Assembly: GCA_026770705.1 (NCBI GenBank)
Contig: JANJGN010000002.1
Span: forward strand, 214,086,001 to 214,150,000
Length of the DNA: 64,000 nt
Origin: Isurus oxyrinchus
Lineage: Eukaryota
Direction: 5' to 3'
The notes under the pieces are model-generated. The model was given only the letters and a program-made list of their open reading frames with translations, did not search any database and was not told the DNA's origin. A program made the position numbers and the translations under genes. Positions 13,359-64,000 of this stretch are shown one piece after another (within the stretch, counting starts at the first letter, position 1; each line of letters starts with the position of its first letter).

Positions 13359-14839
13359 CTGGTGGAACACGTGCATTGCATGCTGGTCGGATTTTCATGG
13401 ACATGGCTCAGCTGTGAAGCAGCTCACGGAAGGTGTCTGGGGTCTGATTTGGGACATCAGGGTCTTGGCCATGGGCTGCTACGGATGATCGTTGAGGGGG
13501 GTGGAGACGAAGGTGTATCGGGGTGGGGTGAGTTTGGGAAGGGGGAACGATGATGTCGGGGGCTGAGGTTGGGAGGGGGGGAAACGATAGTGTTGGGAGG
13601 GGTGAGTTTGGGAAGAGAGAACAAGAGTGTCGGGGGGTGAGGTTGGGAGGAGGGGAATGATGGTGTTGGGTGCTGAGGTTGGGAAGGGGGTAGAGAGTAC
13701 AAGGGAGGAGGGCGTAACGGGGAGAAGCAGCAACTGAGGAGGTAGGTGTGAGGGGAGAGAAAGATGTAAGGGAAGGTGTTCAGAGGGGGATAAGAGTTCA
13801 GAGGGGAGCAGGACTTTGAGGGGAGGAAGTTGGAGGGGGGCAGGAGTCCAGGGGGAAGAAGGAGTCCAGGTAGAAGAAGGAGTAAGGGTGGAGGAAGTAG
13901 TAAGGGTGGAGGAGGGAGTAAGTGGGGGTGGGGATATCCAGGTGAACATGCAAAAGCGGAATCTGTGGAGTCCATGACTGCCTGCTGGGGATCAACCTGA
14001 AGGTGCGTGTGATAGAAGGGAACAGTGGGAATGAGAGAGGTAGGAGGGAATGGTGAGTATGAGAGGGGGCAGAGTGACCCCATATGGTGGGAGGATGAGG
14101 GTGTGATGGTAGCAGTAGAAGGGACAGTGAGGGTTGTTGGTGGGGACACAGGCAGACATGGACCCTGGGGGCAGGAAGGAGGAGGTCAGGGAGGTCAATG
14201 TGGATGGGGGGTGGGATTCGCATAATGATAGGGAATGTGCATGTTCACCTGGCCATCCTGGAATGATAAGGGTTCTGGTTGGTAGGTGACGGTGTGGAGG
14301 TGGAAGGTGATGCCAAGGGGGGGGGGGGTCAACAGTGATGGGGGAAAAGGACATGGGTGACTGGGGAGGGGAACGGACGGGAGAGCTGAAAACATACTTT
14401 ATAACAACGACACTCCTGAAATTGAAAGTGCAAAGGAGCCCCGTGTTGGACGGGGTAAAGATGCTGCAAGGTGGGCGGAGATGCAGTTCAGCTCAGATGG
14501 ACAACTGAAAGAGAAACCCAGTGGGCAGCATCGAAAATTCTCGGGACAATGAGATGAGTGTGACGGGGGAAGGCTCAGTGTGTGTGGGAGAATGGTTGCA
14601 CGAGGCTCTAAAAGGCTCTACCACACACACACTTCTCCATCCGGAATCACTCCTGGTCTGGCTTTGTGCAGCTGAACTGTTAGTGGTGGGGAGGATGCAG
14701 GGGGAGGACTCACAAAGCCTGTAAATGAAGCTGAAAGACAACATTACCCATTACCCAGTGAAAGTGAATATATTTTCCAATTATTAAGTGACAAAATATG
14801 TTCACCCATGCAACCACTTGTGATCAGAAATTCTTACCT

Positions 14840-16547
14840 TTTCTAGGCCTGGCATTTCTAGGTGCTGCCCTGACATCCACAGCAGGGGTGGAGGCAGCCT
14901 GAGCAATGTTTGGCCCTGTTGGCTCTGAAGCCTTCGATCTGGGCCCGCTGGAGAGCTGAGGCCTTGAGGACCCTGGCTTGCTTTGGCTGTCCTCCTGTGG
15001 GCTGGCTGCTCCCTCTGCGGTGACAGAGGACGAGGTTGAGGGGGGTCACGGGCAAAGGGGACTCAGAGGGAGAGGACAGCCTCTGAGATTTCTGAGTGAA
15101 TGACCCAGGGATTCCCAGATGCTGCTCTTACCCCCTTTGGATGCTCGAGGCCCCCGGCCTGATTCCTTGAGGGGTAGGAGCACCTGGAGGGATGTCGAGG
15201 TGCCCCGTTTCCCGCTTGCGTTATCGCTGCAGGAGATCACCCAAGTCTCCCGTGATGGAGTGCAGGTCTGTGCTCATCCCCACGTTCTGCTGGACCAGGG
15301 TCTCCATGGCATCCGTCATCCTTCCTATGAAGCCCTCCATACCTGCACATATGGGCACCACTGCATCAGAGAGCAGGCAGACACACTCCTCTTACTCACA
15401 TGCCACTCTGTGGAGGGCATCCAATAGCTCTGCATGACATTCCCCCAACTTCTGCTGACTCTCCAAGATGAGTTGGAAGGTTAAATCCGGACTCTCACCA
15501 TCTGACTCGGAGCTCACAGATGCCTCTTCCACAGCAGTCCTCCGAGTTCCGGGGAGCCGGGCTGAACCTGCCTCCTCCTGCTGCAGGAAGTTGTCCATGA
15601 GGTGGCCATCAGATTATAAACCCGAGCCTGCTCTAGATCTAGGCCCCACCAAGGTGTGTATACCTGCGCTGGTGGAGGGTGTGGGTAAGCACTGTGACGC
15701 GTATTCCAGGTTGTTTATTTCCAGCTCTTCAATGGAGGAGGTGTCCTCTTGGCTGGAGGTGAGGACCTGGATGGAACTGAGGGACTGGCTGGCTGAGGGT
15801 GTCGGTCACTTGGCAGAGCTCCCTGTGAATCAAAGTAGAGATAATTAGTGCATGGCAGCACAGTCAACAGCAGGAGAGAGAGCACTCACAGTTACGCTGA
15901 GGGAGGGATGATGTGGTGCAGGATTCTCATGTGGCTGTTCGCTGCCGACCTCACTGTTACTGCAGGCAGGGTCTACACCCTCACCAGCCAGCATGATGCC
16001 ATGCTCCTAAAAGTGAGTGAGGGGTCTAATGTGGGCCACTCCACCCCCAGCCTGGGACCTCTCCCTGCTAATGTGAGCCAGCTTGTCCTGCATGAAAACA
16101 GATGGAGAGAGTATGATCAGGACGCATGGCACTTCCTGGAATGTTTGTGTGGTGAGCGGAGCCATGGACGGGATGAGGATGTGGGCTCTGGAGATTATGA
16201 GCCTGATGGAGTTGTGATGGTGTGTGTGAGAGTTAGTGATGTTGTTCCCTGAGGTGTGAGATCCCTGTGGATGTGTGAATTGAGAGTGAAGAGACGAGTG
16301 ACGTACCCTGGCGGAACGGATGAGAGCATTCATCCTCTTCCTGCACTGGATGGCTATCTTCTTTTGCAGGGTGTTGCTGCTGACCACTACTGCCACCACC
16401 TCCAATGCTGGATTGGTTATCTCGCTTGCTGGTCTTCACCCAGAGTGTGGGTAGAGGACAGTGCAGCGGCCTCCTCGCTTCCAGTAGGCACTCGAGGGAG
16501 GCATCGTTAATTCTGGGGCCAGCATGTTTCCTCTCTTTGGCAGCCAT
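14840..16547 (-). pseudogene. Harbinger Myb/SANT-like DNA-binding protein gene, spliced, disrupted
   Basis: Exon 1 (16547-16307) MAAKERKHAGPRINDASLECLLEA...QCRKRMNALIRSAR|gt; exon 2 from 16087 ag|[16 protein letters not shown]; a further acceptor at 15822; frameshifts and stops present. Confidence 0.75.
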
Positions 16548-19278: not shown

Positions 19279-19522
19279 TATCCCCATCTTAAGGGTATTA
19301 AGAGTTATGGAACCCAGATTAGCTGTGATCAATCTAATTGAATGGCGGAACAGGATTGAGGGACAGAATGACCTCCTCCTGTTACTATTCCAGCTGGATG
19401 GTCTCCAATTCAAATATGTTTATATGATTGGGTTTTGCCTGTGTAACATGTAGTTTCCACAACAAAAACAGAATTACCTGGAAAAACTCAGCAGGTCTGG
19501 CAGCATCGGCGGAGAAGGAAAG

Positions 19523-19561
19523 AGTTGACGTTTCGAGTCCTCATGACCCTTCGACAGAACT
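19523..19561 (-). ncRNA. Putative minimal type-I hammerhead ribozyme (PLE-associated)
   Basis: Reverse complement: AGUU CUGUCGA A GGGUC AUGAG GACUC GAAA CG UC AACU; stems I and II pair, with a palindromic ACGU at stem III. Confidence 0.6.
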
Positions 19562-19622
19562 TGAGTGAATCCAAGAAAGGGGTGAAATATAAGCTGGTTT
19601 AAGGTGTGTGGGTGGTGGGGGT

Positions 19623-19655
<33 letters not shown>

Positions 19656-19911
19656 TGGGTGGGGGGAGAGAAGTGGAGGGTTTTGGTGTGGTTGTAGTGA
19701 CAAACAAGCAGTGATAGAAGCAGATCATCAAAAGATGTCACAAACAACAGAACAAACGAACACATAGGTGTTAAAGTTGGTGATATTATCTAAACGATTG
19801 TGCTAATTAAGAATGGATGGTTGGCCACTCAAGGGATAGCTCTAGTGGGGGTGGGGGGAGCATAACAGATTTAAAAAGATTTAAAAATAATGGAAATAGG
19901 TGGGAAAAGAA

Positions 19912-22658
19912 TAAAGTTGTTGAATTCAATATTCAGTCCAGAAGGCTGTAAAGTGCCTAGTCGGAAGATGAGGTGTTGTTCCTCCAGTTTGCGTTGGCCT
20001 TCACTGGAACAATGCAGCAAGTCAAGGACAGACATGTGGGCAAGAGAGCAGGGCGGAGTGTTAAAATGGCAAGCGACAGGGAGGTTTGGGTCATTCTTGC
20101 GGACAGACCTCAGGTGTTCTGCAAAGCGGTTGCTCAGTTTACGTTTGGTCTCTCCAATGTAGAGGAGACCACATTGGGAGCGATGAATGCAGTAGACTAA
20201 GTTGGGGGAAATGAAAGTGAAATGCTGCTTCACTTGAAAGGAGTGTTTGGGCCCTTGGACGGTGAGGAGAGAGGAAGTGAAGGGGCAGGTGTTGCATCTT
20301 TTGCGTGGGCATGGGGTGGTGCCATAGGAGGGGGTTGAGGAGTAGGGGGTGATGGAGGAGTGGACCAGGGTGTCCCGGAGGGAGTGATCCCTACGGAATG
20401 CCGATAGCAGGGTGAAGGGAAGATGTGTTTGGTGGTGGCATCATGCTGGAGTTGGTGGAAATGGCGGAGGATGATCCTTTGAATGCGGAGGCTGGTGGGG
20501 TGATAAGTGAGGACAAGGGGGACCCTATCATGTTTCTGGGAGGGAGGAGAAGGCATGAGGGCAGATGCGCAGGAGATGGGCCGGACACGGTTGAGGGCCC
20601 TGTCAACGACCGTGAGTGGAAAACCTCGGTTAAGGAAGAAGGAGGACATGTCAGAGGAACCGTTTTTGAAGGTAGCATCATCAGAACAGATGCGACGGAG
20701 GCGAAGGAACTGAGAGAATGGGATGGAGTCCTTACAGGAAGCGGGGTATGAGGAGCTGTAGTCGAGGTAGCTGTGGGAGTCAGTAGGTTTGTAATGGATA
20801 TTGGTGAACAGTCTATCACCAGAGATTGAGACAGAGAGGTCAAGGAAGGGAAGCGAAGTGTCAGAGATGGATCACGTGAAAATGATGGAGGGGTGGAGAT
20901 TGGAAGCAAAATTAATAAATTTTTCCAAGTCCCGACGAGAGCATGAAGCGGCACCGAAGTAATCATCGATGTACCGGAGAAAAAGTTGTGGAAGGGGGCC
21001 GGACTAGGACTGGAACAAGGAATGTTCCACATACCCCATAAAGAGACAGGCATAGCTGGGGCCTATGCGGGTACCCATAGCCACACCTTTTATTTGGAGG
21101 AAGTGAGAGGAGTTGAAGAAGAAATTGTTCAGTGTGAGAACAAGTTCAGCCAGACGGAGGAGAGTAGTGGTGGATGGGGATTGTTCGGGCCTCTGTTCAA
21201 GGAAGAAGCTAAGGGCCCTCAGACCATCCTTGTGGGGGGTGGAGGTGTAGAGGGATTGGACGTCCATGGTGAAGAGGAAGAGGTTGGGGCCAGGGAACTG
21301 GAAATTGTTGATGTGACGTAAGTTGTCAGAGGAATCACGGATGTAGGTGGGAAGGGACTGGACAAGGGGAGAGAGAAGGGAGTCAAGATAACGAGAAATG
21401 AGTTCTGTGGGGCAGGAGCAAGCTGAGATGATCGGTCTACCGGGGCAGTTCTGTTTGTGGATTTTGGGTAGGAGATAGAAGTGGGCCATCTGAGGTTGGG
21501 CGACTATCAGGTTGGAAGCTGTGGGAGGAAGATCCCCAGAGGAGATGAGGTCAGTGACAGTCCTGGAAACAATGGCTTGATTTTCAGTGGTGGGGTCATG
21601 GTCAGGGAGAGATAGGAGGAAGTGTCTGCGAGTTGACGCTCAGCCTCCGCGAGGTAGAGGTCAGTGCGCCAGACAACAACAGCACCACCCTTGTCAGCGG
21701 GTTTGATGACAATGTCAGGGTTGGACCTGAGAGAATGGAGTGCAGTAAGTTCAGAGAGAGAGAGATTAGAATGGGTGAGAGGAGCAGAGAAATTGAGACG
21801 ACTAATGTCGCGCCGACAGTTCTCAATGAAAAGATCAAGAGAAGGTAAGAATCCAGAGGGAGGGGTCCAGGTGGAGGGAGAATATTGGAGGTGGGTGAAA
21901 GGATCCGTTGAACGGGGAGAGGACTCCTGCCCAAAGAAGTGAGCCCAGAGACGAAGACGGCGGAAGAAGAGTTCAGCATCATGCCGAGCTCGAAATTCAT
22001 TGAGGTGAGGGCGAAAGGATATTAAACTAAGTCCTTTGCTGAGCACTGAACGTTCAGCATCGGAGAGGGGAAAGTCAGGGGGTATAGTGAATACACGGGT
22101 GGGGCTGGGATTGGAAGATGAGGTGGGGACGGAGGGACAGGCAGGGGTGGAGGGTCCTAGATGGGTGTTGGTGTCGATGAGTTGTTGGAGCTTGTATTCC
22201 TTAGCACTTGAGAGAAAGAGAAAAAGTTTCTTGTTGAGGCGTCGGATGAGCCGAAGGATAAAATGAAACTGGGGGCACGCGCAGCTTTGAAAAAAGGTAC
22301 GGCGGTGCTGCTGGAGGGAGAGGTCGAGTGTGTTCATATGGCGGCGCATGGCACTGAGTGTGGATCTCAGAATGTGACGGGAACAGCAGTCCAAGAAATG
22401 TTTTATGTCCCGGAGATACCTGTAATCCTGGGTGGGTTCGAAACATGAGGGGTGGAATTTCAGTTGAAATCCACGTGGGGTAAGTCGGAGACGGAGAGAG
22501 TCACTGAGAAAGGAGATATGGCTGTGAAAGCGGGTTTTAGTAAACACCTTGTCAAACACCAGGAGAGAATTGGAAAGCAATGAAGGTGAACAAGGCAAAA
22601 GAGAGATACGGAAATCTTGTCGCAGAGACGAACAGAACTTCTTCAAGGAGGTAGGCAT
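19912..22658 (-). pseudogene. PLE ORF (RT + GIY-YIG endonuclease), near full length, with frameshifts and a stop
   Basis: KPADKGGAVVVW; FTMDVQSLYTS; GVAMGTRIGPSYA; YIDD; Cys-rich linker; NLVYCI..CGLLYIGETKRKL..RFAEHLRSV. The Cys linker suggests the Neptune group (inference). Confidence 0.9.
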
Positions 22659-22792
22659 TTCTTGAAGAGCAGTGGCAGTCAATTAAACAGAGAGATAAAA
22701 ACAAAAAAACTGCGGATGCTGGAAATCCAAAACAAAAACAGAATTACCTGGAAGAACTCAGCAAGTCTGGCAGCATTGGCGGAGAAGAAAAG

Positions 22793-22831
22793 AGTTGACG
22801 TTTCAAGTCCTCATGACCCTTTGACAGAACT
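22793..22831 (-). ncRNA. Putative hammerhead motif, mutated
   Basis: Same layout, with core CUGUCAA and a stem II substitution. Confidence 0.45.
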
Positions 22832-22871
22832 TGAGTGAATCCAAGAAAGGGGTGAAATATAAGCTGGGTTA

Positions 22872-22902
<31 letters not shown>

Positions 22903-24385
22903 GCGGGGGGGGGGGCGCGGTTTGGGTGGGGGGAGAGAAGTGGAGGGGGTTGGTGTGGTTGTAGGGACAAACAAGCAGTGATAGAAGCAGATCACCAAAA
23001 GATGTCACAAACAACAGAACAAAAGAACACAGGTGTTAAAGTTGGTGATATTATCTAAACGAATGTGCTAATTAAGAATGTATGGTAGGGCACTCAAGGT
23101 ATAGCTCTAGTGGGGGTGGGGGAGCATAGAAGATTTAAAAAGATTTAAAAATAATGGAAATAGGTGGGAAAAGAAAAATCTATATAATTTATTGGAAAAA
23201 ACAAAAGGAAGGGGGAAACAGAAAGTGGGTGGGGATGGAGGAGGGAGCTCAAGACCTAAAGTTGTTGAATTCAATATTCAGTCCGGAAGGCTGTAAAGTG
23301 CCTAGTTGGAAGATGAGGTGTTGTTCCTCCAGTTTGCGTTGGAACAATTCAGCAAGCCAAGGACAGACATTCGGGCAAGAGAGCAGGGCGGAGTGTTAAA
23401 ATGGCAAGCGACAGGGAGGTTTGGGTCATTCTTGCGGACAGACCGCAGGTGTTCTGCAAAGCGGTTGCCCAGTTTACATTTGGTCTCTCCAATGTAGAGG
23501 AGACCACATTGGGAGCAACGAATGCAGTAGACTAAGATGGGGGAAATGCAAGTGAAATGCTGCTTCACTTGAAAGGAGTGTTTGGGCCCTTGGACGGTGA
23601 GGAGAGAGGAAGTGAAGGTGCAGGTGTTCCATCTTCTGCGTGGGCATGGGGTGGTGCCATAGGAGGGAGTTGAGGAGTAGGGGGTGATGGAGGAGTGGAC
23701 AAGTGGATTGATCCCTACGGATTGCCAATAGTGGGGGTGAAGGGAAGATGTGTTTGGTGGTGGCATCATGCTGGAGTTGACGGAAATGGCAGAGGATGAT
23801 CCTTTGAATGCGGAGGCTGGTGGGGTGATAAGTGAGGACAAGGGGGACCCTGTCTGTCCTTGTCTTGCTGCATTGTTCCAGTGAAGCCCAACGCAAACTG
23901 GAGGAACAACACCTCATCTTCCGACTAGGCACTTTACAGCCTTCTGGACTGAAAATTGAATTCAACAACTTTAGATCTTGAGCTCCCTCCTCCATCCCCA
24001 CCCCCTTTCTGTTTCCCCCTTCCTTTTGTTTTTTCCAGTAAATTATATAGATTTTTCTTTTCCCACCTATTTCCATTATTTTTAAATCTTTTTAAATCTT
24101 TTATTCTCCCCCCACCCCCACTAGAGCTATACCTTGAGTGCCCTACCATCTATTCTTAATTAGCACATTTGTTTAGATAATATCACCAACTTTAACACCT
24201 ATGTGTTCTTTTGTTCTGTTGTTTGTGACATCTTTTGATGATCTGCTTCTATCACTGCTTGTTTGTCCCTACAACCACACCAACCCCCTCCACTTCTCTC
24301 CCCCCACCCAAACCACCACCCCACCCCCCCACCACACACACACCTTAAACCAGCTTATATTTCACCCCTTTCTTGGATTCACTCA

Positions 24386-24424
24386 AGTTCTGTCGAAGGG
24401 TCATGAGGACTCGAAACGTCAACT
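24386..24424 (+). ncRNA. Putative minimal type-I hammerhead ribozyme
   Basis: agtt ctgtcga a gggtc atgag gactc gaaa cg tc aact. Confidence 0.6.
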
Positions 24425-25569
24425 CTTTTCTTCTCCGCCGATGCTGCCAGACCTGCTGAGTTTTTCCAGGTAATTCTGTTTTTGTTTTGGATTTCCAGCA
24501 TCCACAGTTTTTTTGTTTTTATGTAGTTTCCACGTTGCACCAGTAGGTAGCAGGCTACTGCTAAAAACAACATTACATGCTGACAAAAATCACACTCAAG
24601 TACCACCTGGCAGCCACAAGTTCTTTGTTTTGACAAGACATATTTTAACTTGAATGCACTCTCTCCACAATGGGAAAATGTGGAAATAAATTGTTAATAT
24701 GCATAAGACTTTACCAAATTCTAATTTGTTCCTGTCATTTGTCTTATTTTTCACAAAGTAATCAATTTGGGAATTGGCTCTAAGCTCTGAGCCCCATTCT
24801 GTGTTTTGCAGTATAAACACAACAATTTGCATTATGCAATACAGCCTGTCGTATTTTTTACACAACTGCCTGGGAGTGATAGAATGACAGATATGACTGA
24901 CAGCTGCAGCTGAAGAAGCAGTCCTTCAGCCCGAGGCTTCCGCTGTTATGGAATCCAACAATTTCCACAGCATCGGGGCAACACAAGAAATGTGCAAGAG
25001 TAGCTTTTGGATTGGAACAGTCCTCAATTTTGTTTTGCTAATCTTGGATACAATCTGCTGTCAGCTCAAGCAGTCAACATTTGTTTAAAAATTGCACTTG
25101 ATTGTGAAAAGCAAACAGGTTAGAGAAGTGTAAATTCCACTTCTGCCAGTAAAACCACTCTCGCTGATGAATTATGCACCTCCCTGTCTTTGGGGAAAGT
25201 ACTTTAGACTGATGATAATTTTAGCAGCAGAAAGAAAATTTCAAAAATATACACAGGAATGCAGAGTGGAATTAATTCCAGAGAGATGTCTAATGCCACA
25301 CAATGTACTTCAGTACAATTTTTCCTGCACTCATTAAAGTGAGAGAATTCAGCACAGGATGTTGGCATCGAAGTAATCATGTGTTATATGCTGGGAAGAA
25401 CTTCTAAGGAGAGACAGACTCCAAGGCCAGATCACATGTTTAATGGCATCATCATGCACTGGGTAGGCTCATAACATATGAATACATTACACTGCTTCTC
25501 CCTTTTAAAAAAATAGTTTTTTCACAAATTGTTTCCAGTTACACTAACTGTACAAATTCAAAAATACGT

Positions 25570-28474: not shown

Positions 28475-30370
28475 GGCCGGGATTTTCCGTACCTGCCAGT
28501 GTCGGGCGTGTTGTGTGACTTGAATGGACAATATGACGCGATCGGTTTCACGATGGCATGAAACCAGTTTGCGATCGTCCGCTCGTGTTCTCCACCATCA
28601 GAGGTTGGGAAACTCATTGTAATGCATCAGCATATCGTTATTAGGCCTGCCTGCCGGAATCATCCCCTTCCTGCTGGATCGTCTGCCCACGTCTGCAGGA
28701 AAGCACGCCAGTGTAGAACATGTCTTGATAAGTGTGATGTGCGGAAGCCAGGACTCACTCACCAGGGCTTTGCCCACGTTGTGGATATCCGAAGATAGCA
28801 GAAGATGTTAGAGCCCGACACCAACAGAACATGGAGGAATGTCCATGGCACTCTGGGTTGAATCTCATGGACATGGCTCTGCTGGGAAGCAGCTCACGGA
28901 AGTTGGATAGTCACCATTGATGGTCAAGGAGGCGGGAGAGGAAGGGCTAGGATCAGCTGGGAGAGGAAGAGGAGAGGTGAGGTTGGGAGGGGGGAAATGA
29001 AGGTATCAGGATGGGGGGAGGTTGGGAGGGGGGGGGAATGAAGTTGTCAGGGTTGGGGGAGGTTGGTGGGGGATGGAGGAGGTTGGGAGAGGAGGAATGA
29101 AGTTGTCAGGGTTGGGGGAGGTTGGTGGGGGACAATGAGGGTTTAGGATGGGGGAGGTTGCCGGTTGGAGAATGAAGGTGTCAGAAGAGGGGAAGGTTGG
29201 GAGGGGGAATGGCGGGGGGAGGGGGGTAATGGGGGAGAAGACTGCAAATGGGGAGATAGGTGTAAGGAGGGTGGAGGGTGCAAGGGAAGGAGTGCAGAGA
29301 GGGGAGGGTGTCCAGGGTGAGGAAGGGGTGTGGAGAGTGGAGGGGGTCTGGATGGAGGAAGGAATGCGGAGAGGAGAGGGTGTCTGGGGAGGAAGGGGTG
29401 CTGAGAGGGGAGGAAGCAAGGATTGAGTAAGAATAAGAGTGGAGGCAGGATTCAGGAAAGGGACAGGAATAAGGCTGGAGGAAAAAGTGATGCTGGAGGA
29501 AGAAGTGATGCTGGAGGAAGAAGTGAAGCTGAAGGAAGAGGTAAGACTAGAGGAAGGAGTCAGGAGGGGAGAGGGACTAAGGGTGGCTGAGGAGTGAGTC
29601 AGGAAGGGGGAGGGACTAAGCAGGTGGGGGTGTCTGGAGGGGTGGGTGGCCTGTGCAGGGGTGGGGGGAAGGGGTTCCAGGAGGAAAGGGGTTCTGAGGG
29701 AAGGGGTGCGGGGGGCTGATGTGCAGGGAGTGTGCATGCCAGGGGTCGGATAGGTCCATATCTGCATCCTGGGGAGCGAGCTGAGGGTGGCCCTGGTGTG
29801 GAGGAAGGGTGAGAATGACCGAGGGCAAAGCGAAGCGGTAGGGTGGGAAGGTGAGGGTTCGACGTAGTGATAGAAGGGATGGCGAGGGTGGTTGGTGGGG
29901 ACCCGGAGGCAGACGGGGTGGGAAGAAGGAGGTCGGGGAAGTGAATGTGGGTGGGGGTGGGATTTTCAAGAAGGAAGGGAATGTGCACATTCACCTGGAC
30001 GTCCCCAAAGGAAAAGGATTGTGGCTGGTAGGTAACGGACGGGAGGTGGAAGATGATGCCGGGCGGGAGGACGGGGGCAGTCAGCTGTGATGGGGGAGAA
30101 GAAATGGGTGTCTCGGGGAGGGTAAAGGATGGGGGAGCGAAAGTAAAACTGAATTAGCACCATGCTGTCCAAATCGAAAATAAAACGACAGCCGTGGTGA
30201 GTGAGACCAGGTGCTGCATGGGAGTGTGATCATTGGGTGGACAGAGATGCAGGGCAGCTCAGATGGACAACTGAAAGCGAACCCCAGCAGGCAGGACATT
30301 AAGATGAGTGTGAAATGCGAAGGATGATGAAGCATGGGAGAGGACCATAAACATTTTTGACATCTCCCAT
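28475..30370 (-). mobile_element. Harbinger family copy B (one end, truncated)
   Basis: Begins GGCCGGGATTTTCC; colinear with 12698-14600 and with the reverse complement of 62600-64000. Confidence 0.8.
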
Positions 30371-31002: not shown

Positions 31003-31165
31003 TGTTTTAGATGGAGAGAGAAACAGGGTTAACATTCTGAGTCCATATGACCCTCGAAACATTAACTCTGTTTCTCTCTCCAAAGATGCTGCTAGACCTG
31101 GTGAGTTTTTCTAGCATTTTCTGTTTTTGTTTCAGATTTCCAGCATCTGCAGTATTTTATTTTTA
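31003..31165. mobile_element. Miniature PLE-tail insertion with inverted 5' part
   Basis: gagagagaaacagggttaac...ttaactctgtttctctctc palindrome followed by a PLE-type tail gatgctgctagacctg..ttcagatttccagcatctgcag. Confidence 0.7.
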
Positions 31166-33780: not shown

Positions 33781-34824
33781 GGAAGATTTTAGAGAAGACT
33801 TCACTCCATAGGACAGCTTCGTGTAGGAGTATAACCCTATGTGTTATCATGAGATACTGCTGGTTCACTTGGTGCACATTGAGCTGTGCATAAACATAGA
33901 ACAAATCAAACTTGGTGAATATCTTGGATCCCACTAACTTTGCATAATCTTGAGAGGTTGGTAGTAGATACTACTTATTATCAAGTGCCCGGTTGATTGT
34001 ATCTTTGTAGTCCCTGCATAGTCTCATGCGTTTGTCTGACAACCACTACCTCCCTTAGCCTCCGGCCCAGGGCAACCACTACTTCCCTTCCACTGCCCCA
34101 TGTGTCCACCACCCAACATATCCCTCCCATGACCAACTATCTTCCCTTCTGCCACCACTGCTATCTTCCTCTCACTGTAGCGTGGAATGTAGATGGTCTA
34201 GTGAAAAACATAAAGCTAGGAGGAAAATGTTAGATTCACATTTTGAATGAATAAAATAAAAGCAATTTTAGTGTGAGAAAGAAAGAGAAAGAGATTGGGA
34301 TTGAAATTGCATCAATAGCATTGTTCCAGAGTTCTGCATTAGTAAGAAATGGGCAGAAAGGCTTGAATGGATTTTCTTTCATTCCCTGTTCCCTTATGTT
34401 TCTGATTTGTTGGAATGCTTCGTATATTGCAGTTAATCAGCTGCTAAATGATCCGATTGATAAATCAGTAGTTTACTGTTGCCTGTTGGCTCTGAAATTC
34501 ATTACGTTCATCCTTTCCCCATTTTCTCTTGGTCCTCTGTCACTTTCTGTATTTATGTGAATGGGACTGGCTTCACCATATCACTGCAGCAGTAATAGTA
34601 CGTTGATGTGAGATTGCAGAGATATGAAGGAACTAGAAATATAAAAGAAAGATTTACTACCAGTCTCAGCAGCTTCTGTAAACTCAAAGGATACTTTTAT
34701 GATATGAATTCAGGGGCTGTTATAATTAAACAACACATGCATATTTTGACATTCAACAGCATATGTAGACAACTCAGTATTTAATATTTAAATAAATATG
34801 CTTTCCAAAGCATTCAGAGTTCCA

Positions 34825-35070
34825 AAATAAAACAACAGAAAATGCTGAAAACTCTCAGCAGGTCAAGCAACATCTGTGGAGTGAGAAACAGAAATGTTTC
34901 AGCTTCATGACCTTAGAATTGGAAGAAGTTCAAGATTTAGCAGACTCTAAGCATTACAGAGGCGAGGAAAGAAAAGGGAGGAAAGACAAAAGAAAACGTC
35001 TATGAAAGGGTTTAAATGACACAGGAATGATGGTGCAATGCAAATTTCATTGGTACTGGGATCATAAAGA
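34825..35070 (-). mobile_element. Older PLE 3' tail fragment
   Basis: aaaataaaacaacagaaaatgctgaaaactctcagcaggtcaagcaacatctgtggag, a diverged relative of the tails at 22700 and 46030. Confidence 0.6.
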
Positions 35071-35074
35071 ACCA

Positions 35075-35530
35075 GGAGGAGATTGTGGATCAGGGGTTGA
35101 GGAGGTTATGGGTCAGGGGCTGAGGAGGTTGTGGGTCAGGGGCTGAGGAGGTTGTGGGTCAGGGGCTGAGGAGGTTGTGGGTCGGGGGTTGAGGAGGTTG
35201 TGGGTCAGGGGTTGAGGAGGTTGTAGTTCAGGGGTTGAGGAGGTTGTGGGTTGGGGTTGAGGAGGTTGTGGATTGAGAATTGAAGGGATTGTGGATCGGG
35301 GCTGAGGAGATTGTGGGTCAGTGGTTGAGGAGGTTGTGGGTCGGGGGTTGAGGAGGTTGTGGGTCGGGTGTTGAGGAGGTTGTGAATTGGAGGGTGAGGA
35401 GATAGTAGGTTGAGAATTGAAGGGGTTATGGATCGGGGGTTGAGGAGGTTGTGGGTTGAAGGTTGAGGAGATTATGGGGTGGGAGCTGAGGAGATCATGA
35501 GGCGAGGTTCTGTGGAGATTGTGGGTCAAG
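35075..35530. repeat. 23-bp G-rich minisatellite (GGGTCAGGGGYTGAGGAGGTTGT)n, about 19 units
   Basis: Tandem units read directly from the sequence. Confidence 0.9.
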
Positions 35531-36354: not shown

Positions 36355-36950
36355 ATGAAGGTTATGAGTCGGGGGGAGATTTGAGGTGAGGGGAGATATG
36401 GGGTGAGGGGAGATTGTGGGTTTGGGGGAGATTGTGGATTGGGGGGAGGTTGAGGGTCAGAGGAGATTGTGGATCGCGGGACTTGTGGGTTGAAGGAGAT
36501 TGTGGGTCAGGGTGATTGAGGGTTGGGGGAAATTGAGGGTCAGGGAGGTTCTCGGTCGGGGGAGATTGAGGGTCAAAGGAGGTTGTGGGACGGGGGACGT
36601 TGTGGGTCAGGGGAAGTTGTGGGCTGGGGGGATTGAGGGTCAGGGCAGGTTGTGGGTTCGGGGAGGTTGTGGGTTCGGTGAGGTTGTAGGTTGGGAGGTT
36701 GGGAGGTTGTGGGCTGGGATTGTTATGGGTTGTAGGTTTTGGTGGGTCGGGGGTGTTGTGGGTCAGGGGACATTGGGGATTGAAGGAGATTCTGGGTCAC
36801 AGCAATTGAGGGTTGGGGGAGACTGAGGGTCAGGGGAGGCTGTGGGTCAGGGGACATTGTGGGTTAGGGGAGGTCATGGGTTAGGGGGGTTGTGGGTTGG
36901 GGGTTTTGGCGAGTCAGGGGTGTTGTGGGTCGGTGGGGTTACTGTGGGTT
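36355..36950. repeat. About 20-bp G-rich degenerate minisatellite (GGGTCAGGGGGAGRTTGT-like); resumes at about 39020-39180
   Basis: Repeated ttgtgggt..gggggagattg units on both sides of the LTR-element insertion. Confidence 0.8.
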
Positions 36951-36959
36951 GCAGAATAT

Positions 36960-39015
36960 TATTATAAGGGTGTTCGGGCAGAGAAAGGGTTATTGTAGGA
37001 CAGGAAAACAGTATCACCCACAGAATGATGTACAGAGTCAAATGATGGTAGACTGTGTGTAGGAGAGTCTGGAAGGAGCCAGCATGGAGACAGCACCCAT
37101 GCAGGGCAGTACTTTGGAGATGTATATAGTTATGGGTTACCAACCAACAGTTGTTGTTCAACCATAAAAGCCTCCAGACCTCTTAGCGAGACACCAAACA
37201 ATGTTACAACATGGTGGCAGTGAAAGATAAACACTGAAATCCCAGAGAAGTTGGAGAAGGAAACCGGAATCTCAAAGCATGAAAAACTAAAGAAACTGAA
37301 ACCCAGCTATATTGAAGACACCATTGGAGATTATCTAAAAAGAAGCTCCATTGCTAGATGTGGGGCTGAGGGACTTCACCGGGGCACGTAGAGGTCCATT
37401 GCCAGACCTGATTGAACGCGGAGTCAAGGGGCCTGGCTAGATCACAAAAGGAAGATGAAAATTCAAAAAAGGAGAGAAAAAGGCTGAAAGGCAGCAGAAG
37501 AATCCACTGTACAGATGAAAACGCCATGATCAAATGCAGAGGCAGAGTCAATGGACTTGCCCAGATCACAAAAGGCTGAGCCAAATTCAAAAAACAAAAA
37601 AGGATGAAAGGCAGAAGAATAATCCACTCTGCAGATGAAAAAGAAACCAAGTGAGCGCAGAGTCAAGAGACCTAGCCGAATCACAAAAAGGCTGAGCAAA
37701 ATACAGTAAAAGAAAGAAAATACATTTTAAGACAGGCAGCAATCCAGATCAGCACTAGCATAGCAATTACTATCCGGATCAGTACCAGCATAGCATTACT
37801 ATCTGGATCAGTACTAGCATAGCATTACTATCCGGATCAGTACCAGCATAGCATTACTATCCGGATCAGTACCAGCATATCAGTGCTATCCGGATCAGTA
37901 CCAGCATATCAGTGCTATCCGGATCAGTACCAGCATACCAGTGCTATCCGGATCAATACCAGCATGCCAGTGCTATCCAGATAAGTAGCAGCATACCAGT
38001 ACTATCCGGATCAGTACTAACATACCAGTACTATCCGGATCAATACTAGCATACTAGTACTGTCTGGATCAGTACCAGCATGCCAGTGCTATCCGGATCA
38101 GTACCAGCATGCCAGTGCTATCCGGATCAGTACCAGCATACCAGTACTATCCGGATCAGTACCAGCATACCAGTACTATCCGGATCAGTACCAGCATACC
38201 AGTACTATCCGGATAAGTACCAGCATACCAGTGCTATCCGGATTAGTTCCAGCATACCAGTGCTATCCGGATCAGTACTAGCATACCAGTACTATCCAAA
38301 AAAGTACCAGCGTACCAGTGCTATCTGGATCAGTACTAGTATACCAGCACTATCCAGATAAGTACTAGCATAACAGTGCTATCCGGATCAGTACTAGCAG
38401 CATACCAGACTATCCAGATCAGTACTAGCATACCAGTGCTATCCGGATCAGTACTAGCATACCAGAGCTATCCGGATCAGTACCAGCATACCAGTGCTAT
38501 CTGGATCAGTACTAGCATACCAGAGCTATCCGGATCAGTATTAGCAGCATACCAGTACTGATCCGGATCAGTACTAGCATACCAGTGCTATCCGGATCAG
38601 TACTAGCATACCAGTGCTATCCGGATCAGATCTAGCATACCAGTACTATCCGGATCAGATCTAGCATAACAGTGCTATCTGGATCAGTACTAGCATACCA
38701 GTGCTATCTGGATCAAATCTAGCATACCAGTGCTATCTGCATCAGTACTAGCATACCAGTGCTATCTGGATCAGTACTAGCATACCAGTGCTATCCAGAT
38801 CAGATCTAGCAAAACAGTGCTATCTGGATCAGTACTAGCATACCAGTGCTATCCGGATCAGTACTAGCATACCAGAACGAAGCCAGCGGGAGGTTGCAGC
38901 AACAGGTCCACAGCCGATGCCATAACCTGTGGTGACCGAGTTCAACTGAATGGAAAGAAAGTTTATAAAAGAACAAGCAGAGCTGAAAATCACCTTCCAT
39001 TTGATTCCCAGGCAT
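36960..39015 (+). mobile_element. Probable truncated non-autonomous LTR retroelement (5' LTR + PBS + repeat-rich interior)
   Basis: LTR-like end ...gttacaaca (37211) immediately followed by PBS-like TGGTGGCAGTG; about 120-bp direct repeats at 37421, 37545 and 37660; no 3' LTR seen. Confidence 0.5.
37745..38875. repeat. 29-bp tandem repeat (TATCCGGATCAGTACCAGCATACCAGTGC)n, about 39 units
   Basis: Contiguous units with no spacers; variants occur in blocks. Confidence 0.95.
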
Positions 39016-45400: not shown

Positions 45401-45872
45401 GAAACTTAAGTCAGAGAAAAAAAAAACGTTTACCTTCACCATGAGAGCATTTACTCTAGATGAAATTGGTGTCACAGAAAGAGGAGATTCGAATAATGTT
45501 GGGATTCCAATATTCCAGGGTGTTTATAGGAGCACAATTACTATTATTCAATTTTATTCCTGTGTAGAACTGCTTGCACATAATCTAGGTATCCGTTACA
45601 GTGAAGTAATATGACAAGCAATTGAAGTGCGATACTTTTACTTCATACACTACTAATCTACTCTATTCACTCATACTACCAGAGACACATTGGGTAAAAG
45701 CTTGTAATTTACTCAAGGTTGACACAGTGAGGTTTGTGTGCCTCACTATGAAAACTAGGACTGGGAAATTAAGCAACAGGTAAGAAAAAGAGAGTTTTAT
45801 TCCATTGCTTTGTGCTTTATGTATATTTCACTGTCAGCTACAACTGTATATCCCAGGTAAAACCTAATCAAT

Positions 45873-46004
45873 AAAAGCAAAATACTGCGGATGCTGGAAA
45901 GTTCCGAAGAAGAGTCATATTGGACTCGAAATGTTAGCTCTGTTCCTCTACCCACAGATGCTGCCAGACCTGCTGAGCTTTTTCAGCTTTCTCTTTTTTT
46001 AATG
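45873..46004. mobile_element. Miniature head-to-head PLE insertion (inverted tail + hammerhead motif + tail)
   Basis: 14-bp TSD AAAACCTAATCAAT at 45859-45872 and 46005-46018. Confidence 0.8.
45900..45939 (+). ncRNA. Putative hammerhead motif (different PLE subfamily)
   Basis: agtt ccgaaga a gagtc atattg gactc gaaa tg tt agct. Confidence 0.45.
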
Positions 46005-46029
46005 AAAACCTAATCAATCCCGTCTAATG

Positions 46030-46880
46030 AAAGAGCAAGAAACTGCAGATGCTGGAAATCTGAAAAGAGAAGAGAAAATGCTGGAAGCACTCAGTAAGTC
46101 AGGCAGCATCTGTGGAGGGAGGAACAGAGTTAATGTGTGAATTTTTCCTGGTCTGGCAGGGAGGGGTTTGGAGTTGGGGTCAGGAGTAAAATCTGAAGAC
46201 AGCGTGTTGGGTCAGTTCCAAGCTTTGTTGCCACACCCCTGGGACTTCCTGCCCGAGGTGGAATCAGTGAGGCAGCGGCTACCTGCCTGGCAGTGATGGG
46301 TAGCCCAATAGGGCCACTTTAGGGACAAATTGGGGACAAGATGCTGCTGCCACCAGGATCCTTCAGTACATCGGATGGAGACCTGCTGAGGCCCAAAGTT
46401 TGGCAGGTACCTGGAGGCAGCCTCCCCGGAGCAGACCAGGGGTCAATGATGCCCCCTCTAAATCTCTCCACACAGGGATTAACGGCCCAGCCGTGGGCAC
46501 ATACAATCCACTGGAGGGGTTTCACCTCCACAATGGTGGTCTGCCAGCTGTGGCCATTCCTCTTTTTAAATTTTCATAAGACAGCGCCTCCATCTTGAGG
46601 AGCAGCTACATGCTTTAGTAGCACCCAACTCCCCAGTGGATCTGCCGGCTTCCCAGAGCTTCGAGCCCTCTGTTTGGGCGTCCCATCCTGGGAATCCATC
46701 CGCCATCCTTAATTGGATGGTGAACGTGGAGGCGGTCTCTTAGTTGGCCGGCCTCTGTAAGAGCGTGAATTCGTGCGGCCAGGTGAAACCATTTGGGGTC
46801 CGGAACCACTTTTGGTCCCAGTGGCAGAAAGATTTGAGGCTTTAAAATTCCACCCAACATTTCAGATCAGTGACTTTCTA
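46030..46880 (-). mobile_element. PLE tail fragment interrupted by a Harbinger-type MITE (46135-46855)
   Basis: Tail ..ggaacagagttaat| resumes as |aacatttcagatcagtgac; the MITE ends are gtgtgaattttt / aaaattccaccc, flanked by aat/aac. Confidence 0.6.
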
Positions 46881-49526: not shown

Positions 49527-49993
49527 TTAATTAGCTGAAATCTTTCACCTATTTTGCCAGTATCGCATGAGCCCCACGCGGTGTTAGCACCTTGGCAACT
49601 CAGAAGAGTTGGTTGCACAGTGAGAATTTGGAGGCTTTGTAACCTTTAACAGCAGAAAAAGGCAAGGCTGATGTCTTCAGCTGACAGAGACTCACCATTA
49701 GGTAGGAATCTCATGGAGACTAATGTTGGACTAATCACACCTCTATTGTGTCCTTCCCACTGCTGCTGCATTTCCCTCAGCAGCGCTTGCACTACAGACA
49801 CAGTGAAGACTGCTGGCCACCCTTGCAATGATGAATCAATTCCCTCAAACCGCCCGCCATCCTTAATTGGAAGGCGATCCCGGAGGTGAGTTCTTAATCG
49901 GCACCCTGCCAGTAGATTGAAGTGAAGGGCAAAACAAAACAGAGTTACCTGGAAAAACTCAGCAGGTCTGGCAGCATCGGCAGAGAAGAGAAG

Positions 49994-50032
49994 AGTTGAC
50001 GTTTCGAGTCCTCATGACCCTTTGACAGAACT
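49994..50032 (-). ncRNA. Putative hammerhead motif, mutated core (CUGUCAA)
   Basis: Reverse complement of agttgacgtttcgagtcctcatgaccctttgacagaact. Confidence 0.45.
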
Positions 50033-50184
50033 AGGTGAATCCTAGGGAGGGTTGAAATATAAGCTGGTTTAAGGTGGTGGTGGGGGGGGGTGCGGTTTGG
50101 GTGGGGGGAGAGAATTGGAGGGGGGTGGTGTGGTTGTAGGCAAAAGCAGTGATAGAAGTAGATCATCAAAAGATGTTACAGACA

Positions 50185-51482
50185 TCGAACAGAGGCCCGA
50201 ACAATCCCCATCCACCACTACTCTCCTCCGTCTGTCTGAACATGTTCTCACACTGAACAATTTCTCCTTCAACTCCTCTCACTTCCTCCAAATAAAAGGT
50301 GTGGCTATGGGTACCTGCATGGGCCCCAGCTATGCCTGTCTCTTTATGGGGTATGTGGAACATTCCTTGTTCCAGTCCTACTCCGGCCCTCTTCCACAAC
50401 TCTTTCTCCGGTACATCGATGATTACTTCGGTGCTGCTTCATGCTCTCGTCGGGACTTGGAAAAATTTATTAATTTTGCTTCCAATCTCCACCCCTCCAT
50501 CATTTTCACATGGTCCATCTCTGACACTTCCCTTCCCTTCCTTGACCTCGCTGTCTCAATCTCTGGTGATAGACTGTCTACCAATATCCATTACAAGTCT
50601 ACCGACTCCCACAGCTACCTTAACTACAGCTCCTCACACCCCGCTTCCTATAAGGACTCCATCAAATTCTCTCAGTTCCTTCGCCTCCGTTGCATCTGTT
50701 CTGATGATGTTACCTTCAAAAACAGTTCCTCTGACATGTCCTCCTTCTTCCTTAACTGAGGTTTTCCACCCACGGTCGTTGACAGGGCCCTCAACCGTGT
50801 CCGGCCCATCTCCCGCGCATCCGCCCTCACGCCTTCTCCTCCCTCCCAGAAACATGATAGGGTCCCCCTTGTCCTCACTTATCACCCCACCAGCCTCCGC
50901 ATTCAAAGGATCATCCTCCGCCATTTCCGTCAACTCCAGCATGATGCCACTACCAAACACATCTTCCCTTCACCCCCACTGTTGGCATTCCGTAGGGATC
51001 ACTCCCTCCGGGACACCCTGGTCCGCTCCTCCATCACCCCCTACTCCCCAACCCCCACCTATGGCACCACCCCATGCCCACGCAAAAGATGTAACACCTG
51101 CCCCTTCACTTCCTCTCTCCTCACCGTCCAAGGGCCCATACACTCCTTTCAAGTGAAGCAGCATTTCACTTGCACTTCCCCCAACTTAGTCTACTGCATT
51201 CGTTGCTCCCAATGCGGTCTCCTCTACATTGGAGAGACCAAACGTAAACTGGGCGACCGCTTTGCAGAATACCTGCGGTCTGTCCGCAAGAATGACCCAA
51301 ACCTCCCTGTCGCTTGCCATTTCAACACTCCACTCTGCTCTCTTGCCCTCATGTCTGTACTTGGCTTGCTGCATTGTTCCAGTGAAGCCCAACGCAAACT
51401 GGAGGAACAACACCTCATCTTCCGACTAGGCACTTTACAGCTTTCCGGACTGAATATTGAATTCAACAACTTTAGGTCTTGA
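50185..51482 (+). pseudogene. PLE ORF 3' half (RT motifs B-C, thumb, GIY-YIG); in-frame stop at 50757-50759
   Basis: GVAMGTCMGPSYA; LRYIDDYFG; PCPRKRCNTC; NLVYCIRCSQCGLLYIGETKR; ends EFNNFRS*. Confidence 0.9.
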
Positions 51483-51881
51483 GCTCCCTCCTCCATCCCC
51501 ACCCCTCTTCTGTTTCTTCCCCCTTCCTTTTGTTTTTTACCAATAAATTATATAGATTTTTATTTTTCCCTACTATTTCCATTATTTTTAAATATTTTTA
51601 AATCTTTTATGCTCCCCCCACCCCCACTAGAGCTGTACCTTGAGTGCCCTACCATCCATTCTTAATTAGCACATTCGTTTAGATAATATCACCAACTTTA
51701 ACACCTATGTGTTCTTTTGTTCTGCCGTCTGTAACATCTTTTGATGATCTGCTTCTATCACTGCTTTTGCCTACAACCACACCAACCCCCTCCACTTCTC
51801 TCCCCCCACCCAAACCCCCCCACCCCCCCACCACCACCACCTTAAACCAGCTTATATTTCAACCCTCCCTAGGATTCACCT

Positions 51882-51920
51882 AGTTCTGTCGAAGGGTAAT
51901 GAGGACTCGAAATGTCAACT
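51882..51920 (+). ncRNA. Putative hammerhead motif
   Basis: agtt ctgtcga a gggta atgag gactc gaaa tg tc aact. Confidence 0.5.
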
Positions 51921-53874
51921 CTTTTCTTCTCCGCCGATGCTGCCAGACCTGCTGAGTTTTTCCAGGTAATTCTGTTTTTGTTTTGGATTTCCAGCATCCG
52001 CAGTTTTTTGTTTTTATCTTATTATTATTATTGAAGTGAAGGGCATGCTGCTGCTGCAACCCAAGTCTGAACCCGAAAATGATCCAGACCGCTAAAAATG
52101 CTCTAAGTCCAGAAAATTCTGCCCTATGGTATGTCTGGTATGACATGGTTTAGATGCAGAGTGAAGTTTCACCTACACTGCCCCATCAAACATCTCCAGG
52201 TTAAGTGCAGCATAATTAGGTTCAGCATAAACCTGTGTCAGTGAGGGGCCCGCGAGAAGACAGGCAACTGTGCCGGAGTGAGACGGAGAGTGAATGAGTA
52301 GCGAATTAGGTTCACGTGGTAAATTCTGGTAAGCCCTTTTCAGGTTTTAACTATACATTAAGAATCAAGATCTGACATAGTACGAGCCTTCAAGTAAGTT
52401 AGGTTCATTTGTTAAGTAGAGAGCAGCCTGGAGGGGCTGTTTTCTGCAAATCAGCTGAAAGCAGTTGGTTCAAGCGGTGTTAATTACTGCAGCAGGGAGC
52501 TAAACTAGGCTAGTGACCCATCAGGGGGTCTATAAAAGAGACAGGCTTTTCAAACCACACAATCAGTAAGGGGCGTGCTAGGGAACAGTGGGAGGATCAA
52601 GTTGTCATAGTCCATGTAGGTACCAACGACATAGGCAGGACAAGGAAGGCGGTTCTGCATAGACAGTGTGAGAAGCTAGGTACCAAGTTAAGAAGCAAAA
52701 CTTCAAAAGTAATAATCTCTGAATTATTACCTGAGCCATGTGCAAATTGGCATAGGGCAAATAAATTAGAGAGATGAATGCGTGGTCAAAGACTAGTGTG
52801 GGAGAAGTGGGTACCAGTTTGTGGGGCACTGGAACCAGCTTGGGGAAAGTGGGGGCTGTAGCATTAGGATAGTCTACACATGAACCATGCTGGCACTAGT
52901 GTTCATGCAAATCTTATAACTAGAGAAGTAGAGAAGGCTTTAAACTAAACAAGGGGGAGTGAGGGATCAAGCTTGGATAGTTGTGGCAAATCAAGGGGTA
53001 GATTCAAGGCAGGAGACCATAATAATAATATGGAAAATGAGGGTCATAGAATAGCAGGAAGAGGCTAAAGGCTCTACATCTCAATGTATATAGTATTCAT
53101 AACAAAGCAAACAAGTTGATAGTGCACATTGATGTAAATAAATATAATCTAATAGCCATTATGGAGACATGGCTGCAGGATGACAAGGACTGGGTCTGGA
53201 ATATTGAGGGTTATATGACATTCAAGAAGAATAGGAAGCTAGGTAAAGGTGGAGTGATAGCACTGTTGATCTTGGTGCAATAGTTAAAGATGACCTTGGT
53301 TCAGGAGATCAGGATGTAGAATCGGTTTGGGTGGAGATGAGGAATAGTAGGGGAAAGAAGTCACTAGTGGGAATGGTCTACAGGCCCCCTAAAAATAACC
53401 ACAAAGTTTACAAGAAGAAATATTGGGTGCTTGTGATAAAGGGGCAACAATACTCATGGGTAAATTTAATCTACCTATAAACTGGAAAAATCAGATTGGC
53501 ATTAGTAGCCTGGATGAGGAGTTCATGGAATGCTTTCGAGATAGTTTCTTAGAGCAGCACATTCTGGAACTAGCCAGAGAGCAGGTTATATTAGACTTGA
53601 TATTGTGCAATGTAACAGGATTAATTAATGACCTCAGAGTGAAGGCACCCCTAGGTAGCATTGACCACAATATGATTGAATTTTACTTTTAGTTTGAAAG
53701 GGAGAAGAGTGGGTCTAAGACTAGTTTTTAAACTTAAATAAAGGCAACTATGTGGGCATGAAAGCTGAACTAGCTGAAGTGAATTGGGATACTAGGCTAG
53801 GGGATAGGTCAGTGGAGAAGTAGTGGCAGAAATATGAGGGGATATTTCAGAATACACAGAATAAGTAATTCTTA

Positions 53875-55332: not shown

Positions 55333-55944
55333 AGAGAAAGTCAAGGTAATCAGGAAGAGTCAGTATAGTTTTGTGAAAGGGAAATCATGTTTAACCAATT
55401 TATTGGAATTCTTTGAACATGTGTGGTGGATAAAAGTGAGCCTATAGGTGTAGTGTATTTGGATTTCCAGAAGGTATTTGATAAGGCGCCACATCAAAGG
55501 TTATTACAGAAAATAAAAGCTCATGGTGTAGGGGGTAAAATATTAGCATGGCAGAAAACATAGATTATGCATAAATGGGTCTTTTTCTGATTGGCAGGAT
55601 GTGACGAGTGGAGTCCCACAGCTATCTGTGCTGGGGCCTCAACTTTTTACAATGACTTAGATGAGGAGATTGAAGGCATGATAGCTAAATTTTCAGATGA
55701 CCTAAAGATAGGTAGGAGAGTATTATGTTGTGAAAAAAGCAGAGTATTACTTAAACGGAGAACTGCTGCAGAATACTGAACTGCAGAGGGATCTAGGTGT
55801 TCTAGTGTATGAGTCACAAAAGGTTAGTATGCAGGTACAGCAAATAGTTGAGAAGGCTAATGGACTGCTATCCTTAATTATGAGAGGAATTGAACATAAA
55901 AGTAAGAATGTTATGCTTCGGTTATACAGGGCATCTCAAATATT

Positions 55945-56089
55945 TCACCTCTCTTCTATTTTTACTTAGTTCTGTTGAAGGGTCATTTGGACTCGAAACG
56001 TTAATTGTGTTCCTCTCCGCAGATGCTGAGTTTTTCCAGGTATTTTTGTTTTTGTTTTGGATTTCCAGCATCCGCAGTTTTTTGTTATT
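55945..56089 (+). mobile_element. PLE 3' tail insertion including a hammerhead motif (55968-56006)
   Basis: 12-bp TSD ATCTCAAATATT (55933-55944 / 56090-56101); agtt ctgttga a gggtc atttg gactc gaaa cg tt aatt. Confidence 0.8.
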
Positions 56090-57194: not shown

Positions 57195-57447
57195 AGCCCC
57201 CTCAATGCTCCACACACTGCTCCCTCGATGCTCTGCACACTGCTCCCTCGACGCTCTGCGCACTGCTCCCTCGATGCTCCACACACTGTCCCCTCAACGC
57301 TCCACATACTGCTCACTCGACACTCCACACACTGTTCCCTCGATGCTCCATGCTCTGCTCCCTTGACACCCTGTGCACTGCTCCCTCGATGCTCCGCGTG
57401 CTGCTCCCTCAATGCTCTGTGCTCTGCTCCTCAGACATTCCATGCTG
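57195..57447. repeat. 23-bp minisatellite (TGCTCCCTCGATGCTCCACACAC)n, about 10-11 units
   Basis: Tandem units read directly from the sequence. Confidence 0.85.

Positions 57448-60689: not shown

Positions 60690-64000
<3,311 letters not shown>

Follow-up and report, generated by a model that had tools for sequence, protein, structure and literature searches.

A fixed, single-origin U6 core variant in the hammerhead of an abundant Penelope-like element, likely a slowed-down self-cutter

The motif at 24386–24424 of the window (the whole stretch of 64,000 nucleotides that was analysed) is, judged by its sequence, a real hammerhead homologue with a fixed core variant of single origin, U6, and it is likely to act as a slowed-down self-cutter. 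The element carrying it is the most abundant young mobile family in the genome, and U6 has been inherited by >75,000 copies.

RESULTS

Seven motifs from four insertions of a Penelope-like element

All seven hammerhead motifs of the initial annotation were located (Table 1). A paired-stem descriptor matches seven times in the window and not once in 100 dinucleotide-block shuffles, and reversed-pattern controls gave 0, so a chance origin of the motifs is ruled out. Positions are counted from the A of AGUU (+1, 24386), which places U6 at +8 and the predicted cut after +35. The 24386 motif combines stem I AGUU/AACU, the core CUGUCGA, a bulged A, stem II GGGUC/GACUC, GAAA and a palindromic ACGU; the unpaired A between A9 and stem II occurs in 7/7 motifs. 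The CUGUCGA core after which the fold had been named holds for only three of the seven motifs (19523, 24386 and 51882); 22793 and 49994 have CUGUCAA (G8A at a CpG) and 55968 has CUGUUGA. U6 in six motifs and CCGAAGA in the one at 45900 were described correctly, as were UG in stem III at 45900 and 51882 and the GUU sites at 45900 and 55968. The 45900 copy is a member of an older A6 family with a U4C change, and does not belong to the U6 variant.

Table 1. Features of the window
Position	Strand	Feature	Remarks
24386..24424	+	U6 minimal hammerhead, otherwise intact	U6 = 24393; predicted cut after 24420
19523..19561	-	U6 hammerhead, otherwise intact	Downstream pLTR of the ORF unit
22793..22831	-	U6 hammerhead with G8A and C11.1U	Both changes at CpG sites; upstream pLTR
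49994..50032	-	U6 hammerhead with G8A	
51882..51920	+	U6 hammerhead, top pair of stem II broken	UG in stem III
55968..56006	+	Older U6 subfamily motif	CUGUUGA; GUU site
45900..45939	+	Older A6-family motif	CCGAAGA = U4C of CUGAAGA; stem II GAGUC/GACUC
19448..24533	.	Three motifs in one compound insertion, its 5' part inverted	13-bp target-site duplication, 19448-19460 and 24521-24533
49916..52045	.	One inverted insertion with two motifs, 49994 and 51882	16-bp target-site duplication
45859-46018		Short insertion of the 45900 motif	14-bp duplication; sense homology from +1
55933-56101		Short insertion of the 55968 motif	12-bp duplication
19456..22920	-	Penelope-like unit pLTR-ORF-pLTR	
24356..24362	+	TATA-like TATATTT, putative promoter element	-30 from the first base of the motif
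24425..24522	+	pLTR tail with two U-rich end sites, putative reverse-transcription starts	Copy ends; analogy to PAc (PMC11167929)

Identification as a minimal type-I hammerhead of Penelope-like elements (PLEs) is borne out by the pLTR setting, stems I and II, the G10.1-C11.1 pair and the unpaired base after A9. The other features of this class, GAAA (GAAA-C-GUC), the ACGU palindrome at 15.2-16.2 and a NUH site, are all present. The CUGANGA core with A6 is found in the ancestral families and is departed from in the young one, and we file the motif as a variant of the class and not as a canonical member. An Rfam covariance-model search up to E=10 gave 17 matches, none of them to a hammerhead family, and a PDB search returned no relative.

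Target-site duplications of 12-16 bp (13, 16, 14 and 12 bp) group the seven motifs into four insertions, and for this reason we count four insertion events, not seven. The motifs had been placed in PLE 3' regions; they lie in pLTRs, which flank the ORF on both sides and are not solely 3'. In the 19456..22920 unit the ORF starts at 22658 (+174) and stops after 383 codons, with the RT and GIY-YIG parts in other frames; this window copy is broken, and a Pfam search with its ORF fragments gave no match. Intact ORFs of 918 aa lie between U6 motifs at two other loci, L241 and L244. The L241 ORF matches RVT_1 over the cut-off (E=7e-8) and GIY-YIG slightly below it (E=9e-4, 20 bits, cut-off 22.6). Between RT and EN it has a C-x4-C-x2-C linker, and a Zn-finger-like linker is common to Neptune and Nematis (PMC8557442). 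We find what defines EN+ Penelope-like elements, one ORF with RT and C-terminal GIY-YIG, and tandem or inverted pLTRs with an optional tail; by these features the carrier element is classed as a PLE with RT, GIY-YIG and a Neptune-type linker.

L241 (G000:C1:459001-469000) is a head-to-tail array of near-identical 3.3-kb units with the intact 918-aa ORF, and is a candidate source locus active at present. The youngest copies are identical to each other and flank intact 918-aa ORFs. A non-LTR retrozyme was considered and rejected: the tandem units are 3.3 kb long and coding, and the short copies are solo or inverted pairs. At 31005-31164, 34820-34912 and 46037-46134 the window holds further pieces of tail or fold-back sequence, now decayed, that older families of this PLE left behind; the first contains a palindrome (31005-31085) that is the source of spurious microRNA matches in Rfam.

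U6 is fixed and arose once

We searched the host genome (4.98 Gb) with the 35-mer of the young family, leaving positions 6-7 free. It has 75,507 exact matches, 131 of them with A6. An A6 consensus had been set beforehand as the result speaking against fixation of U6 in a recently active family; the consensus is U6, and the proposed fixation holds. A random sample of 120 evenly spaced 10-kb stretches anchored 109 copies, and the 83 with a parsable core divide into 55 U6 and 28 A6. Older A6 families with GAGUC or GGGUC stems account for 5,924 matches genome-wide; an AGGUC-type family has 270, mostly A6 among the 100 matches listed. The oldest U6 form (within 5,573 matches) is distinguished from the A6 form by position 6 alone.

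The A6 families are basal when a tree of 87 pLTR pieces is rooted with the AGGUC family. Once the trait column and five deliberately fetched back-mutants are left out, the 65 U6 rows form one clade (support 100/96). There was one A6-to-U6 change, from a CUGAUGA ancestor. The genome-wide match counts together with the tree rule out that U6 came about through post-insertion decay. The U6 clade extends from copies of ∼90% identity to identical ones through several successive subfamilies. An A6 sister clade (L170, L172 and L124) gained GGGUC (10.2) and GUC (H17) in parallel with the U6 lineage, either by convergence or by segment exchange. Runs of organisms A, B and C contain the stretch, and among the T>A changes listed for assembled contigs X16 (organism C) and X11 position 24393 is absent, a weak hint that U6 is shared.

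Sequence change after U6

Changes that followed U6 were read from the majority states of seven hand-defined U6 groups of 2-28 rows each. Across these groups the 10 core sites and 8 stem I sites have zero changes. Five motif sites changed: N7 (U->C), H17 (U->C, turning the cut triplet GUU into GUC), two in loop II, and 10.2, where A-U became a G-U wobble and pairing was kept. Four of the five are among the 8 free of 38 motif sites (p=0.004, post hoc). Core and stems together changed at 1/28 sites against 30/114 in flanks and loop (p=0.005), and the core alone at 0/10 against the same 30/114 (p=0.055); over the same U6 span the upstream spacer adjoining the motif changed at 16 sites. Compared with the tail alone (8/61), core and stems show no significant extra conservation (p=0.16), and the constraint may therefore stem from a promoter or protein-binding role.

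Stem covariation, a check that had been proposed for the motif, was observed: in the 83 random copies the stem II pairs covary between families. Pair 10.1-11.1 is G-C in 65 copies and A-U in 6, pair 10.2-11.2 is G-U in 50, A-U in 24 and G-C in 7, and each stem II position is paired in 74-81 of the 83; the covariation goes back to no more than two or three independent events, none of them outside stem II. The architecture of the U6 motif appears to be still under constraint.

It is improbable, in our judgement, that the motif is dead and drifts, the master lineage having changed too few times to erase it. The core by itself reaches only the p=0.055 given above, with groups made by hand from few rows, which leaves some room for such drift; against it stand the difference for core plus stems and the depth of the U6 clade, whose successive subfamilies arose while the spacer was changing.

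In the youngest subfamilies (L241:3176-3205, L099, L144 and L154) the spacer just upstream of the motif is 2-3 nt longer, and it has changed stepwise into words that repeat the 3' half of the motif, GGACTCGAAA and CAACTCTTT. Such a motif-like spacer could compete for stem II in read-through RNA.

Predicted folding

For the 39-nt motif alone, stem II is predicted with a probability of 0.98 and stem I is partly formed (0.40). When the tail to +70 is included, +1..+7 pairs with +63..+69 and stem I is lost in 11/12 copies, A6 and U6 alike. The minimum-energy fold of two copies differs from a hammerhead dimer. A helper would be needed, as for PAc. A slipped hairpin specific to U6 (positions 6-9 with 11.2-13) was rejected, its probability being at most 0.01.

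The pairing of 24386-24392 with 24448-24454 is possible in all subfamilies tested and perfect in L082 and L177; it is predicted to be an inactive conformer.

Short copies begin at the motif and keep the cut site

A TATA-like word at -29 to -32 is preserved across subfamilies though the spacer around it diverges. The 3' ends of copies fall into two U-rich clusters at about +100-107 and +135-146, that is ∼65-72 and 100-111 nt past the cut site; the earlier figure for inserted ends was up to ∼100 nt past it. The 5' ends of 98 random copies away from locus edges, placed only roughly in old families, fall at -6..+6 in 34 cases and at +35..+37 in none. Genome-wide, 3,371 junctions were counted at +1, 226 at +36 and 177 at the +32 control, versus 79,889 intact sites; the +1 pattern is more restrictive than the others and the control is inflated by a palindrome. 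Many +1 junctions are inversions, and 14 of 20 young +36 junctions inspected are inversions too, with 4 small deletions and 2 plain junctions.

Since short copies start at the first base of the motif and rarely at the cut site, the templates were probably for the most part uncut RNA; both the random-sample ends and the genome-wide junctions show inserted copies containing an intact site, as had been suggested. The template RNA likely begins at the hammerhead, with the first base of the motif as the putative transcription start. An extra G at -1, the signature of a cap, was not seen as a feature of these junctions (5/100 among the first +1 junctions listed), and the start-site reading is thus made without a cap signature. 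The possibility, suggested by the D. virilis Penelope, that the AG of AGUU serves as a 3' splice site was set aside: the short copies are without a common upstream exon, and an AGUU-AG splice joint is absent among the joints listed in assembled contigs.

Two earlier proposals on cleavage found no support. The 19523 and 22793 motifs had been put forward as a cleaving dimer pair, which is unsupported because 22793 carries G8A and C11.1U. The same holds for the release of unit-length RNA to serve as template, because 5' ends pile up at +1 and not at the cut site; in addition, downstream cutting would remove the tail in which the 3' ends were mapped. The share of long copies is 28/55 for U6 versus 9/28 for A6, a difference that is not significant (p=0.16).

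We hold it very unlikely that compensation for U6 has left the motif with the full activity of its A6 ancestor, unit-length RNA being released through dimers. The change of GUU to GUC, the intact ACGU palindrome and the existence of tandem 3.3-kb arrays would suit such a motif, but the 39-nt motif acquired no compensating change when U6 arose, few copies start from the cut site, and the A6 changes described in the literature have proved deleterious in Mg2+ (PMC7151607, PMC3088659).

Junctions at the cut site were also compared between classes. They make up 0.28% of intact copies in the young family and 0.93% (10/1,075, with 0 at its control) in a tail class that is mainly A6, the latter nominally above (p=0.001). 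This bears on the main alternative, namely that the U6 motif has lost the ability to cut and is preserved, in sequence and fold, because it serves the 5' end of the RNA in some non-catalytic way, for example as core promoter, in protein binding or in translation control. The higher rate in the A6-tail class would agree with it, as would the overlap of the motif with the inferred start site and the similar conservation of the tail. From the literature, CUGA-turn mutants are near inactive (PMC9901934), insertion of PAc in vitro is unaffected by hammerhead mutants (PMC11167929), and Naiad elements thrive without canonical hammerheads (PMC8557442). On the other hand, the ten A6-tail junctions are mostly inversions or small deletions, with 2 plain and 3 in or beside U6 sequence, and the changes after U6 occurred at sites that cutting hammerheads tolerate (N7, H17, loop II and a wobble), which a DNA-level or purely structural role predicts poorly. 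We consider a fold without cleavage somewhat unlikely.

Two features lie downstream in the same leader. In younger families a donor-like site, CAG/GTAATT, is found at +85 (window 24470-24475; cf. L241:6643-6730); paired with an AG at +172, it would bound a putative 5'-UTR intron of 88 nt immediately upstream of the ATG, an arrangement known from the D. virilis Penelope. Two upstream AUGs, at 24403 (+18, loop II) and 24441 (+56, tail), open short frames before the main ORF, and the one in loop II is missing from the ancestors with an ATACG loop.

DISCUSSION

It appears to us an evenly balanced proposition that the pLTR hammerhead with the fixed U6 is an attenuated, possibly protein-assisted ribozyme still under selection. 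The 5' start of the RNA would coincide with the first base of the motif, and reverse transcription would be initiated on uncut RNA, from internal sites within the U-rich tail. Stem III would form only between two motifs through the ACGU palindrome, perhaps helped by the element protein. With U6, cutting would be reduced, so that the RNA keeps the leader and the tail that ORF-bearing copies require; occasional cutting would nevertheless be retained. In RNA viruses hammerhead cutting has been linked to cap-independent translation (PMC13725137), and by analogy such a link is a possible reason for retaining it.

The attenuated ribozyme is supported by homology, fixation and single origin of U6, by retention of the other core positions and of the stems, and by the uncut site in inserted copies. 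Several results count against it: the conservation of core and stems does not significantly exceed that of the tail, stem I is lost with the tail and the two-copy fold is not a hammerhead dimer, and U6 copies are not significantly more often long. Its start-site part is further weakened by the +1 junctions, which are not marked by an extra G and are in many cases inversions. It should be noted that a full mutational scan gave low activity for every single change in the CUGA turn, the sole rescuing double mutant being a C-G swap (PMC9901934), and this speaks against attenuation as well. In favour of attenuation, natural A6C is known to cut slowly in Mg2+ while keeping activity in Mn2+ (PMC7151607, PMC3088659), and the hammerhead of the Anolis PLE depends on protein (PMC11167929). 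We found no A6U cleavage rate in the literature searched, including the available parts of PMC9901934 and its supplements, nor anything on position 6 in those of PMC11014351.

A more specific version, which we regard as doubtful, takes position 6 for a tuning site: U6 would make a working conditional ribozyme, dependent on protein or Mn2+, at the first base of the transcript, and the damping would have helped its lineage replace the A6 ancestors and reach >75,000 copies. If this were true, the dated A6-to-U6 series would amount to an experiment of nature that addresses the purpose of PLE hammerheads, whose function is stated to be open (PMC8557442, PMC4209133). In any case the family offers natural pairs that differ by a single letter, A6 or U6, against one background, together with a lineage that succeeded while breaking the rule, so that the need for cleavage can be put to a direct test. 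Descriptors built on CUGANGA would miss the commonest hammerhead-like motif of this genome.

Relation to known hammerheads

PLE minimal hammerheads are slow even with A6 (PMC4209133), a point that likewise counts against attenuation. With this class the motif shares its presence in both pLTRs, a 4-bp stem I, G10.1-C11.1, the unpaired base after A9, GAAA, a palindromic C-G that replaces stem III, a NUH site and many solo copies. It differs in having U6, whereas the 44 rows taken from the PMC4209133 supplement have A6, which the descriptor used there required; the core variant reported for the class is U3-A8, not U6. No natural A6U hammerhead was met in the literature searched, the alignments of Lunse et al. 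2017 lying outside that scope. The small PLE-associated variants that cleave as dimers (Lunse et al. 2017, via PMC6765202) have in common with our motif the diminished stem III, the PLE association and the dimer model.

The hammerhead of phage Bcep176 likewise has a natural pyrimidine at core position 6, yet it is A6C in a single phage motif with measured activity, low in Mg2+ and good in Mn2+ (PMC3088659, PMC7151607), whereas A6U here is fixed in a minimal motif across >75,000 copies and known from sequence alone. Poseidon PAc of Anolis carolinensis resembles the present element in its pLTR hammerhead upstream of two end sites ∼35 nt apart and in copies made from uncut RNA, and the two 3'-end clusters here match its two internal reverse-transcription starts (PMC11167929). 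The PAc hammerhead is active only in the presence of protein, insertion proceeds mainly from RNA that is uncut, and mutants of the hammerhead have no effect on insertion in vitro. In contrast to our motif, the PAc ribozyme has been tested and overlaps the start codon, in an element without a Neptune-type linker (PMC11167929); the ORF here starts at about +175.

Other repeats in the window

Tandem arrays occupy 37647-38996, 35007-35529, 57173-57471 and 36461-36936, with units of 29, 23, 23 and 17 nt, respectively. A second dispersed repeat family, ∼80% alike, is present at 13480-16280, 28935-30060 and 58570-63750; it contains purine-rich subrepeats of 17-18 nt and is inverted between 14470-16278 and 60905-62726.
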